A DNA stretch of 64,000 nucleotides, taken from contig CAVOXA010000001.1 in assembly GCA_963700285.1 (NCBI GenBank), positions 1,056,001 through 1,120,000 on the forward strand, written 5' to 3'. Within the stretch, counting starts at the first letter, position 1. Each line of letters starts with the position of its first letter. Of this stretch, positions 3 through 10,719 are shown piece by piece. This stretch comes from an uncultured Chloroflexia bacterium. Its GTDB lineage: Bacteria > Chloroflexota > Anaerolineae > JAAYZQ01. The translations under genes and the position numbers were made by a program. The notes under the pieces were generated by a model. The model had not been told where the DNA came from. It saw only the letters and a program-made list of their open reading frames with translations, and did not search any database.

Positions 3-3000
3 GGCGCGCTGGAACACGCCCTGCGCGACGGCATCGCCCACGAGGTGCTGAACGCCAAGGAGCACACCCGCGAGGCGACCATCATCGCCCGCGCTGGCGA
101 GCCGGGGGCGGTGACCATCGCCACCAACATGGCCGGCCGTGGCGTGGACATCAAGCTGGGCGGCGAGCTGTCGGACGAGGTGATCCACCGGGCGCACCAG
201 GCGCTCCGGGCACGGGGGCTGGACCCCTTCAGCGCCACACCGGCCCAGATGGACAGCGCCATCGCCGAGGTGGCGCCCCAGTACGCCAAGCATCGCGAAC
301 AGGTGCTGGCGGCAGGCGGACTGCACGTCCTGGGCACCGAACGGCACGAGGCGCGGCGCATCGACAACCAGCTCCGGGGCCGCTCTGGGCGCCAGGGCGA
401 GCCCGGCTCCTCGCGCTTTTACCTTTCGCTGGAAGACGACCTGATGCGCCGCTTTGGCCGCAAGGAGATGCTGTCCAAGCTGATGGAGCAGATCGGCGAC
501 GACTTTCCCATCGAGCACAACCTGGTGAGCAAAACCATCGAGCGGGCGCAGACATCGGTCGAAGGCTACAACTTTGACATCCGCAAGCACCTGCTGGAGT
601 ACGACGACGTCCTGAACCGCCAGCGCGAGACGATCTATGAAGAGCGGCTGCGCATTCTCAAGAGCGACGATCTGCGGCCCGAGGTCTGGCGGATGCTCGA
701 ACGGCAGGTCGACGAGTACCTGGAAAAGTACGGCGAGGAGCCTGAGCAGCGCCGCCAGGTGTTTTCCGGCATGGACGATGTGGTGCCGCTGCTGCTGTCT
801 GTGCCCAACGGACCCTTTCAGGGTCCCCTCGCTTTCAGCAACCACCTCACTGCTTTCCCACCTTTTACCGTCAGCTTTCTTGCCGAGCAGTTTGCGGATG
901 GACCCTTGGAGGCAGTAGCCGAGACGCTCCGTGAGCTGGCCAACCGGGCCGCGGCCAGCTATGGCGAGCAGACGAGCCTCATGGTGGGCGAAATGGCTCA
1001 GGATGTCCTGGGCAAGTATGATGAGCAGCTTGAGTACTACCAGACGCTGCTTGACGAAAAAATCGCGGACTATGTGCAGGTGGCGGAGGAGCGGGGTGAG
1101 ATGCCAGATCTCCGCAGGCTGGCGCAGCACCTGGAGCGCACCTACCCCTTCAGACTCACCATGCCGCGAGGGCTCCAGCAAACGAGTCTGGACGACAACT
1201 CAGCGGAGCTTCGCGCTCACTGGCTGGCCGAGATCGAGGTAGAATTCCACCGCCAGATCTGCAACGGGTTCATGGACCGGACACAGATCCGGCTCCCCGC
1301 CGATGTCCAGCTAGACCGGCTGCGGCCTGCCCGGATTCCCGCTGCCAAATTGAGTGATGAGCTGCGACGCGTGCGCCAACTGGCCGCCAAGCAGCCCCGA
1401 GACGACGCTGGTCGCGAGCGGATGGATGCTTTGTCCCTTCCGGACAGCCCCGATGCCGCCCATGTATCGGACTTTGTGCGGGCGATCAAGGAGGCCAGCC
1501 GGCTCGACTATGGCCGGCTGGACCGCCTGGTGGGCCACGTACTGGGTGCCTACCTGGATGACTTGATGCGCCTCTACCTGGAGGCCGTGGGCGAAGGGGA
1601 GGGGCGCCTCCGGCGCGACTTGGAGGGCTTGCAGGCCTCTGTCGTTGAGGGCAAGAAAGGGAAGCGGGCCGCCGACCTGGTCGGTGTGCTGCGCCAGATG
1701 AACGATCTGGTTCACCTGGAGATCTCTGACCTGGAGCGCCTGCTGAGCCAGGCCCTGGCACACGAATACGACAAGTGGGCTCAGCGACAGTTGGCGGAGA
1801 TAGAGGCGGATGCCAGCCGGACGCCTCTCCAGGAAACCAGTTGGACGGGCATCGCCGAGCACATACTGGCTACTCATTACACCGAGCGGCAGGTCTACGA
1901 TCGCGCGCACCGGCGTCACTCTGCCTGGCTGCCGCGGTTGCCCCTTGGCTACATGGCCCAGAGCCAGGTGGAGGACATGGATGTTGACATGCTGCGCGGT
2001 GCGATCCTGGCCTCGCTACACTGGGTCCTGGAGCAACGAGAGCAGGTCTGGGGCCGCAAGGAGTTCCAGCGTTGGGAGCGCCTCTCAGCGGATGATCTGG
2101 ATGAAGGGATGCTTGAGGGTCTGACGCGCTATCTTGGCGAGCAACAACTGGGCGATCAGCGAGAGCTACCCGTGGAGGATCTGTCGTCTGATCTCTATGA
2201 TCGCTTGCGATTTGTGCTGGCCTTGCGCCGGTGGGAGGAACGCGACCTGCGCCTGGGCGGTCTTCCCCAGGCGGACAGACTTCTGGACCATCTGGGGCAG
2301 GCGCTGAAGGAAGAGATCCTCGCCACCCCCATCGGAGAGTTGGATGCCCAAGTGCAGGAGCGCATTGTCACCTATCTGCGCCAGGGCGGGTTCCTGGATG
2401 ACCAGACTCTGCGGACCAAGCTCGTGGGGCAGCACATTGGCAATTGGGATCCGCGAACCCAGGACGAAGTTGCTGGATTGCTGGGACAGGCGTTCATTGC
2501 TGAGCATGCTGAGAACTCCTTCATCGACCTTGATCCGGCTGCTCGTGACGTTGGTCTTGCCTATTTGCAGCGCCAGCGACGCTTTGTTGATGAGGCTTGC
2601 GTGCAACGTTTCCTGGTCTATGAGGGGCTGGGCGACCTGCCGCCTGAGACACAGGCGGCTGTGCTCTCCCAACTGTCCCGCTCCCGGCTGGATCGGGTTA
2701 GCCGGCGCAAGATTGCCAACTTGGATGTCAAGATCCGGCAGGAGGTGATCGGGTCGCTGCAGAGACAGGGTCTCTTTACCGACCAGCGCCGGCGCGAGGG
2801 GGTACTGTCAGAAGCAAGCTCCTTGCGTCATTTGGAGCCGGATGTGCGGTCAGGCTTTGGCGCCTTCCTGGCCCGCCAGGCACTAGGTGATGGGAGTCTG
2901 AATGACCTGGACGGAGATACCCGCGAGTACGTTCTGGCCCAGCTCAAACAAAGTGGGTTTCTTGTCGATCCTGCGCTGGAAAAGGGTCTGGAATCAAGAC

Positions 3001-4964
3001 GGCTTGGCGAGCTGGAGGCCGGAACCGACGGGAACCCCGATGGCTCTGCCGCAGCGCGGATCCGGGCTGACCTCGTGGCCGAGGCCCTCAGCGATCTGGC
3101 TGTCAAGACCATGGAAGAACTACCTGCCGAGATCCGCCAGTTGGTGCACGATGCGCTCGATGAGCGCAACTATTTTGTGGACCAGGAAAAAGTTGGCTGG
3201 TACGAGCGAAAGACGCTGGCCCAGCTCCCCATCGAGTCTATGCATGGCCTGGAGCAAAGCCTGGGGCAGGTCCGGCTGGCCGAGATCGCCGATATACCTT
3301 TCCGGGATCTGCCATCGGAGATGAAGCAATCGCTGCTGGACTTTTTTGACGGCGCCGGGCTACTGAGCGAGCGTGCCGGGCGCCTGCGCCTAACCCAGGC
3401 CGGCACGTTGCAGGAGCTTTCGGACGCGGACCGCGACGAGGTCGCCCGGTATCTGGGTCGGCAGTGGCTGGTCCAGATTCGCGATCAGCGTCCGCCTGCC
3501 CTGCCAGAGAGGGACTACGAGATCGTGTGGAGCTACCTGCGTGCTCAGGGCCAGTTTTCTGACGAGTTTAAGGAAGAGCTGTTTGCATACCAACGATTGA
3601 GTGAGTTCGATGAGGAGACCCGCGGGGCCATAGAGCGCGCTGTAGTGGACCGTCTCACCTCAACCCTACTCTCCCAGCCGATTGGCGACCTGCCGCCCGA
3701 TCTGCAGAACAGCATCCGGGAGCGGCTGGTTGTGTCCGACTATTTCGTTGACGCGGAGCGCCTGCACCAGCTAGAGACTGTGGCGTTGCAGAGCCTGCCC
3801 CCTGACCAGCGGCAGGCAGTGGAAGGAGCCCTGGGCGGATACATCCTCTCCGAACTGGAAGCCATGTCTATCGACGAGCTGTCGCCTGATACCCAGGCCG
3901 CGCTGTGGCGCTATCTGGACGAGGTGGGCTACCTGGTAGACGAGCGGACGCGCAGCAAGTACCTGGACCGCCCTCTGGCTGACCTGGGAAGTGATGTCTA
4001 CGATGCGGTAGTCTCTGACCTGGCTGCGGGCTTTGAAGAGGAGATCGGTGACCAGCCTGTCTCAGCGCTGGATGACAACCTTCGCCAGGGCCTGCGGGAG
4101 GCACTGGAGGCGATGGGCTTCTTTGAGAGCGATGAGGTTCGCGAACAGGTTCTTGCCCAGCCCCTGGGAACCCTGAGGCGGGAGGACCTGGAAACGCTTG
4201 CCACCGAGTTTGGCCGGATGCGGCTGGATGCCTGGACAGGCCAGCGCCTGAGCGATCTGCCGACGGAGGAGCGGGATGCGGTGCTCGCGTACCTTCAGGC
4301 CCGGGGCTGGTTCCTGGACCAGAATCGGCTCCAAAGCCTGCAATCACTGCGCCTGGGCGACTTGGATGGTTCAGCAGGGGTATTCCCGAATGGCCAGCCT
4401 ACTCCCGCCGGCCTACAGAGAGATCTGGCTGATACGCTCTGCCGCCAGCAGGTCGAGCAGCTACGCCGGCAGCGCCTCGCGACCCTTGATGGGGACGAGC
4501 GACGCACGGTCCTTGAAGTTCTGAGAGAGCAGGGGGCCGTACTGCCAGAGGACCAGATGCGTCCCCTACGGCGCAGGCGAGTCAGAGAGCTGGATCAGGA
4601 TACCTACCATGATCTGCTCCAAAGTCTGGGGGAGGATGTGGTGGACCAGTGGGGCTCGGTCCAGTTCCAGGAGCTTGAGGACGATCAGCAGTCGCTCCTC
4701 AGCGCCTACCTGGGGCGGCAGATTATGGGCCGTATCGAGAGCCGAGTGCTGTTGTACACCATCAGCCGTTTGTGGATCGGCTATCTGACCGACATTGAGG
4801 ATCTGCGCCGGGGCATTGGGCTGGAGGCCTATGGCCAGCGAGACCCGTTGGTGGAGTACAAACGCCGCGCCTTTGAGCTATTCGGGGAACTGGGGGACAA
4901 TATCCGGAGAACTGCGGTCCGCTCCCTGTTCCAACAGCCTCCACAACCGCTGCGCGGCCAGTGA
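3..4964 (+). CDS. secA: Preprotein translocase SecA-family ATPase (5'-truncated by the window) with a ~1,340-aa repeat-rich region in place of the helical wing domain
   Basis: Motifs [64 protein letters not shown], and C-terminal [27 protein letters not shown]. No SEC-C zinc tail. Confidence 0.95.
2331..4730 (+). repeat. Tandem ~63-aa protein repeat array within SecA (12 full units plus 1 partial)
   Basis: Unit starts at nt 2331, 2520, 2712, 2898, 3111, 3300, 3492, 3681, 3870, 4059, 4248, 4476 and 4665, mostly 189 nt apart. Consensus approximately hxxL(P/D)x6hxxxLxxxG(Y/F)(F/L)xD. Confidence 0.9.
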
Positions 4965-5013
4965 TCGTGTACGTCGAGTTGATTCGGTAGCCGATGGTCA
5001 ATTGGAGGGCAAC

Positions 5014-5916
5014 ATGGCGATAGCGACGTTCGCGGAGCTGCTGGACGTAGCCAGGTCCAAGGGACCCAAAACGGTGGCTGTCGCGGCCGGCCACCAATCA
5101 GAGATCATGCTGGCCGGTCTTGATGCCGAAATGGCTGGCCTGGCCGAAGTCATTCTGGTGGGCGACAGCGACATGATCCGCCAGATTGCGGTCCAGCAAG
5201 GCTTTGACATCTCGCGCATGGAGGTGATCCACCAATCCCAACCGAGCGAGGCCGCCTGGCAGGTGATGAAACTGGTCAGCGATGGACAGGCTGACATTGC
5301 CATGAAAGGCAGGGTCGAGACCAGTGACTTTTTGCGCGCCGCTCTGAGCAAGGAGTTGGGACTGCGAACCGGACGTCTGTTCACCCACGTTGCGGTCTTT
5401 GAGATCCCCGGCTTTGATCGGCTGATCTTTATCAGTGATGCCGGGGTTGTCGTTGCGCCGGACCTGGAGCAGAAGGTTCAGATCGTGCAGAACGCCATCG
5501 ACGTGGCCCACAGGCTGCGGATCGACCTGCCCCGGGTCGCTGTTCTTGCCGCCACTGAGGTGGTGAACCCCAAGATCCCAACGACCCTGGATGCGGCCAA
5601 CCTGTCAAAGATGGCGGATCGGGGCCAGATCAAAGGCGGGCTGGTAGACGGGCCCCTGGCGCTGGACAACGCCATCTCGCCCGAATCGGCGCGGATCAAA
5701 GGCATCAAGAGCGAGGTCGCGGGCTATGCCGACATCCTCATCGCACCGGATATCGAGGCCGGCAATGTGCTGGCCAAGGCCATCACCTACTTTGCCCAGG
5801 GCAAGATGGCAGGAGTTGTCGTGGGCGCTCGTTGTCCTCTGATTCTGCCCTCTCGGTCGGACACACGTGAGGCCAAGCTGGTCTCACTGGCGCTGGGGGT
5901 CATGCTGGCCCCGTGA
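5014..5916 (+). CDS. ptb: Phosphate butyryl/acetyltransferase (PTA/PTB family)
   Basis: MKGRVETSDFLRAAL, DGPLALDNAIS, ADILIAPDIEAGNVLAK, SRSD; RBS GGAGGG upstream. Confidence 0.9.
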   Translation: MAIATFAELLDVARSKGPKTVAVAAGHQSEIMLAGLDAEMAGLAEVILVGDSDMIRQIAVQQGFDISRMEVIHQSQPSEAAWQVMKLVSDGQADIAMKGRVETSDFLRAALSKELGLRTGRLFTHVAVFEIPGFDRLIFISDAGVVVAPDLEQKVQIVQNAIDVAHRLRIDLPRVAVLAATEVVNPKIPTTLDAANLSKMADRGQIKGGLVDGPLALDNAISPESARIKGIKSEVAGYADILIAPDIEAGNVLAKAITYFAQGKMAGVVVGARCPLILPSRSDTREAKLVSLALGVMLAP

Positions 5917-6786
5917 AGGAGTCGCCGTGCCCTGGCAGCTCGGTTCGGCCGAACTCAGGCGGTTCGGGCCTGCTCGACCCAGGTGGATCGCTGCCGCTCA
6001 ACTCGGGAGTTACGATCTTTACCGGGCGTTTTGGCAGCGGCAAGACCGAGACGGCCATCAACTATACCCTTATGCTGGTGGAGGGTTCAGTACTGGGTGC
6101 TCCGGGCCGGGTATCTCCGGTCAGCCAGCTATCAAACCAGCAGCCTCGGCGCTTGCCCGGCGCCTTGCTGATCGACTTGGACATTGTGACTCCCTATTTT
6201 CGCTCGCGAGAATTGGCTGAGGCGATGCTGGAAGCGGGGGTGTCCGTGATCACGCCATCTGTCGATCGGCCAGCACCTGGACATGCCCGCCATCACGCCC
6301 GAGATTCTGGGGGCCATCCAGCAGTTCGAGCTGCCGGTGGTTTTGGACGTGGGCGGCGACCGGCAGGGCGCCCGGGCGCTGGGACAGTTTAGCGCAGCCA
6401 TCGGCATGCATCGTCACGGGCGCGGTGTACGCATGCACTTTGTGGTGAACCCCTACCGGCCCTTCACCGACACGCTGGATGGACTGGCCGACTCCATCGC
6501 CGAGATTGAGGCCAGCTCCCGCCTGCAGATCACCAGCCTGGTCAGCAACCCCAACCTGATGCATGAGACGACGGCTGCAACCATCATCGAGGGTCACGCA
6601 GAGATCAAAGAATTCGCGAGGGCATTGGGATTACCCATCGCTTTTGTTTGTGTCGAGCGCCGCTGGACTACTCAGCCGGGAGCCCATAAGCAAACGAGTT
6701 CCGTCTTGTCCCACTTGACCCAGCCAGTGCTGGTTCTGGATCGCCATTTCGTCCATGCCCTGGGAGTAGGGAGAAGCCGCCGGTGA
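5913..6786 (+). CDS. P-loop NTPase (MinD/CobQ-like hypothetical often found beside ptb/vor genes); frameshift near 6265
   Basis: GRFGSGKTETAIN Walker A and DLDIVTPYFRSRE, continuing in another frame as DMPAITP, VVLDVGGD, VVNPYRPFT. Confidence 0.75.
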
Positions 6787-6811
6787 GGGCAGAAAGCTGA
6801 GAGAAGGGAAT

Positions 6812-7717
6812 ATGACCATTCGCAACTTTGCGCAGCTGATGGCAATGGCTATGACCGTGCTCCAAAGCGCGTGGCCATCGTCGGTGGTGGCCAGCGACAG
6901 ACCCTGCACGCCGTGCGCCTGGCGCGTGCCATGGGTTTGGCGGACTGCATCCTGATCGACGATCGCACTCGTCTCAACGACATCGCCGGGGAACAGGGCA
7001 TCGAGCTTGCGGGCATGGAGATCGTCGAGGAAGGCGATATGGTTGAGGCCGCCTACAAGGCTGTGGCGATGATCCACGCCGACGAGGCCGATCTGGTGAT
7101 GAATGGCCGGGCGCTGCCGGTGGAGTTGATGCAGGCAGCCCTCGATCGGCGAAAAGGGGTTGCGCATCGGCAAGGTGATCAGCGACGTGAGCGTCTTCGA
7201 GATCCCCGACTTTGACCGGCTGATCTTTGTCAGCGACGTGGCCATTATCGTCTCGCCCACTCTGGCGCAAAAGGTGGCCATCGTGCAGAATGCCATCGAC
7301 ACGGCCATCGAGCTGGGCATCGATCGAGCCCAAGGTGGCCATCCTGGCCGCCACCGAGATGGTCAACCCCGAGATGCCGGCCAACATGGATGCCGCCAAC
7401 CTGTCCAAGATGGCCGAGCGGGGCCAGATCCGGGGTGGCTTCGTGGATGGGCCACTGGCGTTGGACAATGCCATTTCGCTCAAAGGCCGCGGAGATGAAG
7501 GGCATCAACAGCCCGAGTCGCTGGCCACGCCGACATCCTGATCACTCCCGACGTGGAATCGGGCAACATCCTGGCCAAGGCCATCTCCTATTTTGCCCAG
7601 GGCCACATGGCCGGCGTCGTGGTGGGCGCCAAGTGCCCCATCGTCATGCCTTCGCGCTCCGATCCACCGGAGCAAAAGATGCTGTCCCTGGCTCTGGGTG
7701 TGTACCTGTCCAGGTAG
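6812..7717 (+). CDS. ptb: Second phosphate acyltransferase paralog (several frameshifts)
   Basis: Fragments across frames: VFEIPDFDRLIFVSD, KVAILAATEMVNP, DGPLALDNAIS, DVESGNILAK, MPSRSD. Confidence 0.8.
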
Positions 7718-7794
7718 GTCAAATTGGCAATCGCGCAGAGTGGCAGAACCGCAGGAGCGCATCGGCAGCGTACTGCCCAAGGAGCTTGCAGACC

Positions 7795-8030
7795 ATGAGC
7801 CATATCGTCATCGATCGAGGATCGATGCAAGGGCTGCGAACTGTGCACGACGGTCTGCCCACAGGGCGATCTGGTGCAGATGGCCAACCACTTTAACGTC
7901 AAGGGGTACCGGCCCTTCGGTCTTTGTCGATCCGGACGCACGCTGCACCGGCTGCACGCTGTGCGCCATGATGTGTCCGGATATGGTCATCACTGTGTAC
8001 CGGACACCCAAGAAAGAAGCGGCAGATGTG
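7795..8030 (+). CDS. 2x[4Fe-4S] ferredoxin, delta subunit of 2-oxoacid:ferredoxin oxidoreductase (frameshifted; end approximate)
   Basis: CKGCELCTTVCP (across a frameshift) and CTGCTLCAMMCPD motifs. Confidence 0.8.
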
Positions 8031-8110
8031 ACGCGCTGTAACTGGTACAGCCTCGTGGTACGCGCTGAGCAGGGTTCGTTGCGTAGGTATCTGTGGAAAG
8101 GATGGAAGCC

Positions 8111-9281
8111 ATGAAAGTACTGATGAAAGGCAACGAAGCCATCGCCGAGGCCGCCATCCGCGCCGGCTGCGAGGCCTATTTTGGCTATCCCATCACCCCC
8201 CAGACCGAGGTACTGGAGTATATGTCGCGCCGGATGCCAGAGCTGGGCCGGGCCTTTGTCCAGGCCGAGAGCGAGCTGGGCGCCATCAACATGGTCTACG
8301 GCGCGGCCTGCACCGGCGCCCGGGTGATGACCACCACCTCCAGCCCTGGCTACAGCCTGATGCAGGAGGGCATCTCCTACATCGCCATGTCCTTTGTGCC
8401 CGTGCGTCATCGTCAACATCATGCGCGGTGGCCCGGGCCTGGGCAATATCCAGCCCGCCCAGGGCGACTATTTCCAGATGACCAAGGGCGGCGGTCACGG
8501 CGACTATAACCTCATCGTCCTGGCGCCCTCGACGGTGCAGGAGACGGTGGACCTGGTCATCGAGGCCTTTGATCTGGCCGACAAGTACCTCCAGCCGGTG
8601 ACCGTCATTGCCGACGGCATGATCGGCCAGATCATGGAGCCGGTCGAGTTCCCAGAGACTGGCAAGAGCCAGAGCGGCCAGAGCATCCCTGGGCACTGAC
8701 CGGCGCCAAGGGCCGCGAGCAAGAACGTCATCACCTCTCTGTTTCTGGGCGCCCAGAATCTGGAGCGGGAGAACCTCAAGCTCCAGCAGATCATCGCAGA
8801 GATCAGGGCCAACGAGGTTCGCTACGCCGAGTACATGATGGACGGCGCCGAGATCGTGGTCGTGGCCTACGGCACGGCCGGGCGCATCGTCCAGACAGCG
8901 GTCAAGCAGGCGCGGGCCGAGGGCATTCCGGTCGGCCTCTTCCGGCCCATCTCCATGTTCCCCTTCCCCTACGACCGCCTGGACGAGATTGCCCAGGCAG
9001 TCACGACAATATCCTGGTGGTGGAGCTGAGCGCCGGCCAGATGATCGAGGATGTGCGGCTGGCTACCCAATGGCCGCGTACCCATCTCCTTCTATGGCAA
9101 GATGGGCGGCATCGTGCCCCTGCCCGAGGATGTCCTGGAGGAGATCAGCAAGCTGGCTGAAGACCCGACGAGCGTTGCTGGAAGGCCACAACTGTCCAGC
9201 CCAGCGCTTGCACTTTCTGGCAGTGAGCTGGAGCCGCTCAGGCTGGTACCATGGAGGAGTAGCCATGACACAAGAAGCTGA
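8111..9281 (+). CDS. 2-oxoacid:ferredoxin oxidoreductase alpha subunit (Vor/Kor type; frameshifted)
   Basis: [64 protein letters not shown]. Confidence 0.9.
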
Positions 9282-10079
9282 ACTGGTCTTTGACCGACCC
9301 GAGTCCCTGTCGGACGTGGTGACCCACTACTGCCCTGGCTGCATCCACGGCATCGTCCACCGGCTGATCGCCGAGGTGATGGACGAACTGGGCATCCGCG
9401 AGCGGACGGTGGGCATCGCGCCGGTGGGCTGCTCGGTGCTGGCCTACAACTACTTTGAGTGCGACTTTGCCGAGGCAGCCCACGGCCGGGCGCCGGCCAT
9501 GGCCACCGGCATCAAGCGCGCCAATCCCGATCTGATCGTCTTTACCTACCAGGGCGACGGCGACCTGGCCTCCATCGGCACCAACGAACTGATCCACGCG
9601 GCCGCCCGGGGCGAGAACATCACCACCGTCTTTATCAACAACGCCGTGTATGGCATGACCGGCGGGCAGATGGCGCCGACGACCCTGCCCGGCATGGTCA
9701 CCACCTCGTCGCCCTACGGCCGCGACGTCAAGACCCAGGGCTATCCGGTCCGCGTCTGCGAGTTGGTCTCCCAGCTGGATGGAGCTGCCTATATCGTGCG
9801 GCGCACGGCCCACAAACCGGCCGAGGTGCGCAAGCTGCGCAAGGCGCTCAAGACCGCCTTCCAGGTGCAGATGGCCGGGCTGGGCTTCTCGCTGGTCGAG
9901 GTGTTGTCCAACTGCCCCACCAACTGGGGCATGACGCCCAAGGAATCGCTCAAGTTCGTCGAGGAGCGGATGGTTCCCTACTATCCCCTGGGCGACTACA
10001 AGGTCGTTGAGGGCAGTCAAGAACCTTTCGAAATCGCTAGCTGCGAGCCCAGTCGCCGCTTGCGATTGAGGAGCAGACC

Positions 10080-10095
<16 letters not shown>
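9265..10095 (+). CDS. 2-oxoacid:ferredoxin oxidoreductase beta (TPP-binding) subunit
   Basis: [43 protein letters not shown]. Confidence 0.92.
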
Positions 10096-10660
<565 letters not shown>

Positions 10661-10719
10661 CGGGGGGCGCTGGGAGTCCGAGATCCCTCAGGCTTTTGAG
10701 CAAGCTAGGGAGAAGAGTT

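Follow-up and report, generated by a model that had tools for sequence, protein, structure and literature searches.

A SecA variant whose repeat arm may tether ribosomes, alternating with ordinary secA alleles at one locus

Why would the motor of bacterial protein secretion carry a long arm of repeats in its wing, the least explained part of SecA, when the way in which SecA meets nascent chains is itself still an open question? The question is raised by the beginning of a 64,000-nucleotide stretch of DNA (the window) from an uncultured Chloroflexia bacterium of the class Anaerolineae (GenBank assembly GCA_963700285.1, contig CAVOXA010000001.1, positions 1,056,001 to 1,120,000), where a single open frame on the forward strand (3-4964, 1,653 aa) forms the 3' part of a giant secA gene. 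From N to C terminus the frame encodes the end of SecA nucleotide-binding domain 2 (NBD2), the scaffold helix, an insert of about 1,340 aa and the two-helix finger. We propose, with a probability of roughly 0.4, that this only secA found in the genome encodes a motor of about 2,200 aa, over twice the usual size, with a hairpin arm, the basic tip of which tethers ribosomes in place of the C-terminal tail. The fuller version of this proposal, an allele in which a 14-rung antiparallel helical zipper serves as a long-reach tether for co-translational ribosome capture and which is exchanged with ordinary secA at one locus, is more tentative.

A single-copy SecA with twelve repeat units

Both ends of the frame resemble ordinary SecA. 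The C-terminal part of NBD2 (12..497; motifs LNAK, TNMAGRG, TERHE and QLRGR.GRQG) matches Pfam P-loop_SecA (PF21090) at aa 8-165 with E 6.7e-60. It is followed by the long helix of the helical scaffold domain (507..695; YDDVLNRQR at about 600), and the frame closes with the two-helix finger and a very short C-terminus devoid of SEC-C or basic tail (4728..4964; LEAYGQRDP at about 4821); all features described here lie on the forward strand. Pfam SecA_SW is matched in two separate stretches (PF07516 from aa 169) and the alignment to M. tuberculosis SecA (1nkt), which covers both scaffold helix and finger, is restricted to aa 10-241 and 1565-1644. From the start of YDDV to the start of L.AYGQ we count 1,407 aa, compared with 139 in canonical Anaerolineae SecA. 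A preliminary description of this sequence had likewise placed scaffold and finger far apart in one frame, its figure of about 1,340 aa being that of the insert proper. Judged by sequence, the insertion falls where the chain turns from the last helix of the wing into the first of the finger.

The first ~460 aa of the insert, up to the last wing helix (REQVWG; 696..2072), constitute a non-repetitive wing expansion with no 63-aa periodicity. The arm then begins with three sub-repeats of 26-28 aa at its base (2076..2321), helical in an AlphaFold2 model, continues with twelve acidic units (sub-repeats 4-27; 2322..4655), each 63-aa unit made up of a 35-aa A and a 28-aa B sub-repeat, and ends with sub-repeat 28 (4656..4739), which runs on into the first finger helix, giving about 28 sub-repeats overall. 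Unit starts are spaced 63, 64, 62, 71, 63, 63/64, 64/63, 63, 63, 63, 76 and 63 aa apart and thus match the spacings originally listed for twelve or more repeats, corrected here to pairs of sub-repeats. In the distal part only, the autocorrelation of the profile is highest at a lag of 63 (z 5.2), and lags of 28 and 35 are present as well; a hidden Markov model (HMM) of the unit, built from distant families only, recovers 12 full units and one partial unit from the window frame and none from 200 shuffles. The consensus reads phi-x-x-L-x4-R-x6-L-x3-G-x-F-x-D...L-x-x-L...L-G, and there is no clear higher-order periodicity among units. The array has a net charge of -63 (median -47 in 124 homologues) and two conserved patches.

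Searching with the insert, we find at least 99 proteins among the best 8,000 candidates, with source labels from Anaerolineae. Eighty of these are full-length at 2,016-2,229 aa and cover both insert junctions, which rules out an assembly chimera. The array is present in 33 of 401 sampled genomes of the class (one, G353, probably through contamination): in all 14 genomes of its own family plus the genome studied here, and in members of nine other families at 24-32% identity. Note that these tallies take in G346, which is marked unpublished and on which no claim rests by itself. Four sequencing runs (one of RNA) contain short, near-identical pieces from within the insert, which show neither junctions nor expression, and none of the sequencing-run contigs covers the whole stretch.

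The unit count is fixed, since all 26 aligned loci from 8 families (two of which appear to be one gene) have 12 units, none doubled or missing; the variable counts in relatives for which the preliminary description had proposed to look are not seen. Unit lengths across these loci range from 52 to 90 aa. Unit-specific residues and a basic midpoint are kept across families in spite of the low identity given above. The ratio of nonsynonymous to synonymous substitution rates is 0.20-0.38 in the array compared with 0.08-0.16 in the motor (four pairs), 0.18 in the non-repetitive wing expansion and 0.02 in the finger.

Is the repeat known from elsewhere? When 147 units were compared with Pfam, no family was matched by more than three units, and HEAT, ARM, TPR, ANK and LRR were absent among the 25 families listed. 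The best match to PDB sequences has E 0.0065 over 21 positions, Foldseek, covering PDB and viral structures, gives no match at E 0.001, and searches for a related repeat with VIA and Atlas returned nothing usable; no solved structure of like fold emerged from the fold searches (Foldseek, VIA). A missing family match is not proof of a new fold. Across 1.84 billion representatives the repeat has 53 matches, 43 of them SecA pieces and 10 others that align at most 34 of the 63 unit positions, and 400 other genomes of the phylum contain one weak unit match (E 4.5e-4) among up to 15 scored candidates per genome. The repeat thus appears to be essentially confined to SecA. No description of a repeat-armed SecA was found in the literature (supplements and subscription papers lay outside coverage), and the initial impression of an undescribed architecture stands, with no Pfam, PDB or paper match: on its sequence, the giant is a SecA variant with a previously undescribed repeat arm. 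Two other kinds of repeat protein resemble the arm in part. P0126, P0133, P0142 and P0147 (700-830 aa) share an N-terminal domain and carry tandem helix-turn-helix-like repeats of ~62 aa, similar to the SecA unit along one helix only. P0116 (339 aa) joins an unrelated N-terminus with a signal peptide to SecA arm repeats and is probably misassembled.

A specialised SecA2, as initially suggested, would be expected beside a normal secA. None was found in the genome studied here (G000, 89% complete), which has one secA, at the ancestral secA locus, and SecA_DEAD is matched once in 30 of the 33 array carriers, not at all in two and twice in one (G243). The intact homologues P0003, P0009 and P0100 score 919, 938 and 956 on TIGR00963 (cut-off 800) and 1,003-1,027 on PRK12904 (cut-off 814), and fall below every cut-off of four SecA2 models. 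The window's 3' fragment scores 335 on TIGR00963, because it is truncated. Each of seven motor patterns (Walker A, DEVD, NBD2 and finger included) is kept in 79-80 of the 80 full-length homologues. Going by these profiles and motifs, the giant is not SecA2 and can be taken as the housekeeping SecA with near certainty. In G243, a second SecA N-terminal piece lies at a contig end (L118) and has no blastn match to the giant gene of that genome; it is either a second copy or a contaminant.

The motor motifs of the 5' half fall, in G000, within a frameshifted part of the gene. The start of the gene lies ~1.66 kb ahead of the window; with the intact 2,205-aa P0003 as reference, the upstream part contains 10 frameshifts and no in-frame stops, the last frameshift lying near window position 11. 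A locus from the same genus (L004) has two frameshifts, at positions other than those in the window gene. The frameshifts are probably assembly errors.

Compared with canonical SecA (TIGR00963/PRK12904; 2fsf, 1m6n, 1nkt), then, the giant has motor domains, motifs, scaffold helix and two-helix finger in common, and nearly every carrier genome likewise has a single copy. It differs in its scaffold-to-finger distance (about 1,300-1,490 aa as opposed to 139), its 28-sub-repeat arm and the lack of a C-terminal linker or SEC-C domain. The SecA signature inserts of thermophiles (PMC7023208) are likewise lineage-restricted conserved insertions, but measure 50 and 76 aa (the 50-aa insert in NBD1) and are not repeats; Chloroflexi are absent from the main text of that study. 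Giant proteins of Omnitrophota and the PVC group also place SecA domains in very long proteins; as described in 10.1101/2023.11.21.568195, however, those SecA_DEAD proteins are devoid of scaffold and wing, contain transmembrane regions and occur beside a normal SecA.

Predicted geometry of the arm

The repeats had been taken for an acidic alpha-solenoid. HEAT, ARM and TPR proteins are built from repeated helical modules; SMC coiled-coil arms run out and back and have a functional apex. An AlphaFold2 model of the distal 987 aa consists of regular helical units (predicted local distance difference test, pLDDT, 87.6), and its residues 3..980 align to a single unbroken segment of SecA2 (4uaq; Z 6.1, root-mean-square deviation 3.1, 89 aligned), so that in this model the array ends are brought together in SecA geometry. 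A model of three units (pLDDT 74) has weak matches, the best at VIA Z 4.9, which often join the first and last parts of the model and suggest an out-and-back fold.

Imagine that sub-repeat i zips onto sub-repeat 28-i. Both ends of the array would then return to SecA. Covariation between A sub-repeats, pooled in a two-fold-symmetric way, stands out at i+j=28 only (3.51; 500 random pairings have a mean of 2.16 and a maximum of 2.86); removal of single pairs gives values of 2.73-3.74. The signal is 3.35 in the own-family set and 3.46 in one half of that set. Complex prediction points the same way: the outgoing strand (sub-repeats 4-9; 2313..2900, with a conserved patch at aa 861-927) and the returning strand (sub-repeats 19-24 and the start of 25; 3768..4355) score 0.63 together, the best of three controls scoring 0.01. 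Of 157 solved pairs, 116 reach the mark used for such scores, as do 2 of 215 mismatched ones. The runs have at least 96% of their contacts in common, the pLDDT of the partners is at least 85, and about 410 contacts extend along both chains, with the best pairs (7-21, 5-23, 8-20, 8-21 and 7-22) in the i+j=28/29 register.

Several points weigh against this geometry. The global predicted template-modelling score of the AlphaFold2 model is only 0.45. The symmetric statistic was picked after the data had been seen, its signal is not reproduced in the other own-family half (2.02) or in 26 distant sequences (2.22), and coupling between B sub-repeats at i+j=28 is not significant (2.3). The complex controls included no out-of-register repeat partner, and complex model and covariation test draw on common sequences. 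A nested A-B pairing at i+j=31 (3.74) was rejected, its value being reached by 2 of 273 random sets and the halves disagreeing; mutual information over the whole alignment was noise.

Taking the models and the covariation together, we consider it highly probable that the arm is an antiparallel out-and-back hairpin in which sub-repeat i pairs with 28-i. Of the acidic alpha-solenoid, acidity and helical repeats in the wing survive; a stacked solenoid is probably not the geometry, as models favour antiparallel pairing of distant sub-repeats. Unlike both solenoids and SMC arms, the giant arm is predicted to make these pairs via short helices and beta-bridges, with no coiled coil. Such a nested antiparallel zipper, if true, is an unusual repeat-protein architecture. 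With both ends at SecA, units could only be added in pairs, which would account for the frozen unit count.

A basic tip and a missing tail

If i pairs with 28-i, the apex is sub-repeat 14, the exact midpoint of the array. In the window, sub-repeat 14 (3291-3395), the predicted tip, opens the middle unit (3291..3578) and is followed by the conserved HLGR...R..P.LP...W. Among all loops, that of sub-repeat 14 alone is basic, at +4.4 in 22 distant giants (often a K/R run) and +1.7 in 116 own-family sequences, other loops having +0.4 or less. At the C-terminus, short Anaerolineae SecAs have a basic end and/or SEC-C in 29 of 29 cases. SEC-C follows the finger in none of 96 giants, in which 38-86 aa (median 47) separate finger motif and end, and the last 20 aa are basic in 2 of 16. 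In E. coli SecA, according to PMC6620043, the metal-binding domain of the tail binds ribosomes and the linker autoinhibits. Because the giants lack the SEC-C or basic tail that all 29 short forms have, we infer that the tether has moved from tail to tip. The acidic shaft would serve as a spacer and the tip would bind ribosomal RNA, so that SecA, seated on SecYEG, would hold a translating ribosome near its substrate clamp. Should this be true, a post-translational motor has become a long-reach machine for co-translational capture.

This proposal faces objections of its own. The tip is only mildly basic in the window gene's own family and its charge is weak in the distant giants L031, L033 and L037. 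One giant (L030) keeps a basic tail alongside the arm. The tail is wholly absent in 13 of the 156 SecAs surveyed in PMC6620043, which means that tail loss requires no replacement. On balance, loop charge leads us to lean slightly towards a tip that binds a polyanion, and a ribosome-specific tip is a reasonable candidate on which we would not quite bet. Among the functions initially suggested (holdase, docking scaffold, SecA2), ribosome docking is nevertheless favoured.

The first competitor is a built-in holdase: the arm would cradle unfolded preproteins beside the signal-sequence groove and substitute for SecB. The signal-sequence site is located between PPXD and wing (PMC5963308), the acidic array has two conserved patches, and SecB was found in none of five genomes. 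However, two of those five are short-allele genomes, and trigger factor (54 of 54 genomes) and the SecD/SecF domain (53 of 54) occur with giant and short types alike, which also rules out that giant SecA has replaced either. Moreover, most of the conserved hydrophobic positions suit a zipper core, and an arm built for reach would account better than a cradle for the fixed length and the distinct tip. We regard the holdase as unlikely. As a side observation, the SecD/SecF domain is matched once at E 1e-8 in 9 of 10 own-family genomes and twice in most others; own-family SecD may be diverged (G000:C1:634118-634678).

Two secA types at one locus

Where did the arm come from, and is it tied to its host? 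Scaffold-to-finger spacing among 40 loci of the class falls into steps of 139, ~205, ~295, 375-397, 426-460 and, in distant giants, 1,295-1,336. The ~430 type has profile matches to the giant's non-repetitive wing part (down to E 2e-15) and, at the arm site, two sub-repeats that score 10-38 bits with the unit HMM, against 2-17 for the ~205 type and at most 6 for canonical SecA. As this type has both the wing part and two sub-repeats at the same site, a seed of two sub-repeats at this turn between wing and finger was likely the origin of the array. Anaerolineae SecAs of 1,290-1,500 aa (L043, L045, L047, L051, L052, L060) have the homologous wing expansion and two sub-repeats at the arm site, and sit on the giants' side of the SecA tree (99); unlike giants, they have two rather than 28 sub-repeats, no basic mid-arm loop and a retained basic tail.

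Giant and short genes share one context, prs-secA-hypothetical-kaiC-like-GAF kinase-ptb. Mapped on an RpoB tree of 30 genomes, the 11 carriers require 8 changes, not below shuffles, and the tree of the neighbouring KaiC-like gene goes by family. In quick trees of the SecA motor, giants form one branch (20 of 44 and 10 of 33 sequences, support 99 in each), and three groupings within families fail approximately unbiased tests (p 3e-69, 9e-6 and 0.001). Within one genus, G008 (short) and G055 (giant) are 89-94% identical in flanking proteins but 65.5% in motor cores, while the motor cores of two short alleles from that genus are 92.7% identical. The G055 giant gene is split across two contigs, and each of its flanks matches G008 with ~82% identity in DNA. 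Giant and ~1,000-aa alleles thus alternate at one locus, even inside a genus, and divergent secA types at one syntenic locus, one per genome and mixed in taxa, are a homeoallele pattern. Exchange of these homeoalleles by recombination in the flanks would fit the sequences; hidden tandem paralogy with reciprocal loss is the alternative. Aminoacyl-tRNA synthetase homeoalleles as described in PMC3191353 are likewise divergent, syntenic, usually one per genome and both present within higher taxa, but the secA forms differ by ~1,200 aa of structure, and their function may be equal, judging by single copy and position.

In practice, secA is a misleading phylogenetic marker within this class. The locus also supplies pairs of sister genomes in which alleles of ~1,000 and ~2,200 aa at one locus trade a basic/zinc tail for a basic-tipped arm, so that the roles of tail, wing and ribosome recruitment become testable by swaps.

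Further alternatives compete with a ribosome-tethering tip. The tip might bind anionic lipid instead, or some other machine of the envelope or cytoplasm, with the arm positioning SecA or propping it on the membrane. A basic tip is compatible with any polyanion, and the wing lies at one corner of a membrane-parallel SecA (PMC9926265). Yet no partner gene accompanies the giant allele, short alleles have the same neighbours, and swaps of the allele between hosts do not take these along. We consider this doubtful, and slightly less probable than the holdase.

Suppose instead that the arm is a frozen, near-neutral expansion, grown by paired duplications and hard to shrink, with selection only for folding. 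Sister genomes manage with short alleles at this locus, the evolutionary rate of the array is 2-3 times that of the motor, and Anaerolineae wings range from 139 to ~1,400 aa. If so, paired or whole-arm deletions should be tolerated, yet none occurs in 26 loci; unit-specific residues and the basic midpoint are maintained, and some 1,200 additional residues are carried. This scenario strikes us as improbable. Still less credible is a shield or decoy, whereby giant and short forms respond differently to a natural inhibitor of SecA and both are maintained by balancing selection: the homeoallele pattern is in its favour, and PMC3191353 considers inhibitors as one reason for synthetase homeoalleles, but the array is under purifying rather than diversifying selection at fixed length, and the inhibitor itself is hypothetical. 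That the giant is an accessory SecA2 handling special substrates, or a chimera of the assembly, can be dismissed almost entirely: the 5' half does have frameshifts here, G243 has its second N-terminal piece and G353 has a short secA plus a giant piece, but the junctions and SecA2 cut-offs argue otherwise, the frameshift sites differ in the same-genus genome, P0003 is intact, and the G353 piece with its flanks (L037, L119) is 99% identical to G055 DNA and probably bin contamination.

An apparent 2,082-aa SecA in G089 (L038) is a scaffold artefact, a normal SecA joined to a GAF kinase over a run of N. Own-family giants have ~88 additional NBD2 residues between LVGT.S and LNAK (L001:13700-14050; L006), a spacing of 115-116 against 27 in the majority of distant giants; inserts at this place also occur in some short forms and in G195.

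As for the neighbourhood, a cluster of hypothetical, KaiC-like ATPase, hypothetical and multi-GAF histidine kinase genes lies 3' of secA in many genomes of the class (L006:13082-19817). In the genome studied here a phosphate butyryltransferase gene lies directly 3' of secA (window 4964-5014). Window 4998-10700 holds phosphate butyryltransferase-like genes and a 2-oxoacid:ferredoxin oxidoreductase operon, followed by fpg, maf, HIT and glutaredoxin-PDZ genes on the reverse strand. Broken genes (prs, a radical-SAM-like gene, the secA 5' half, a second ptb and vorA) cluster at L001:9050-14011, ahead of the window, and at window 5900-10700; these frameshifted clusters adjoin long clean stretches and have the appearance of local assembly error.

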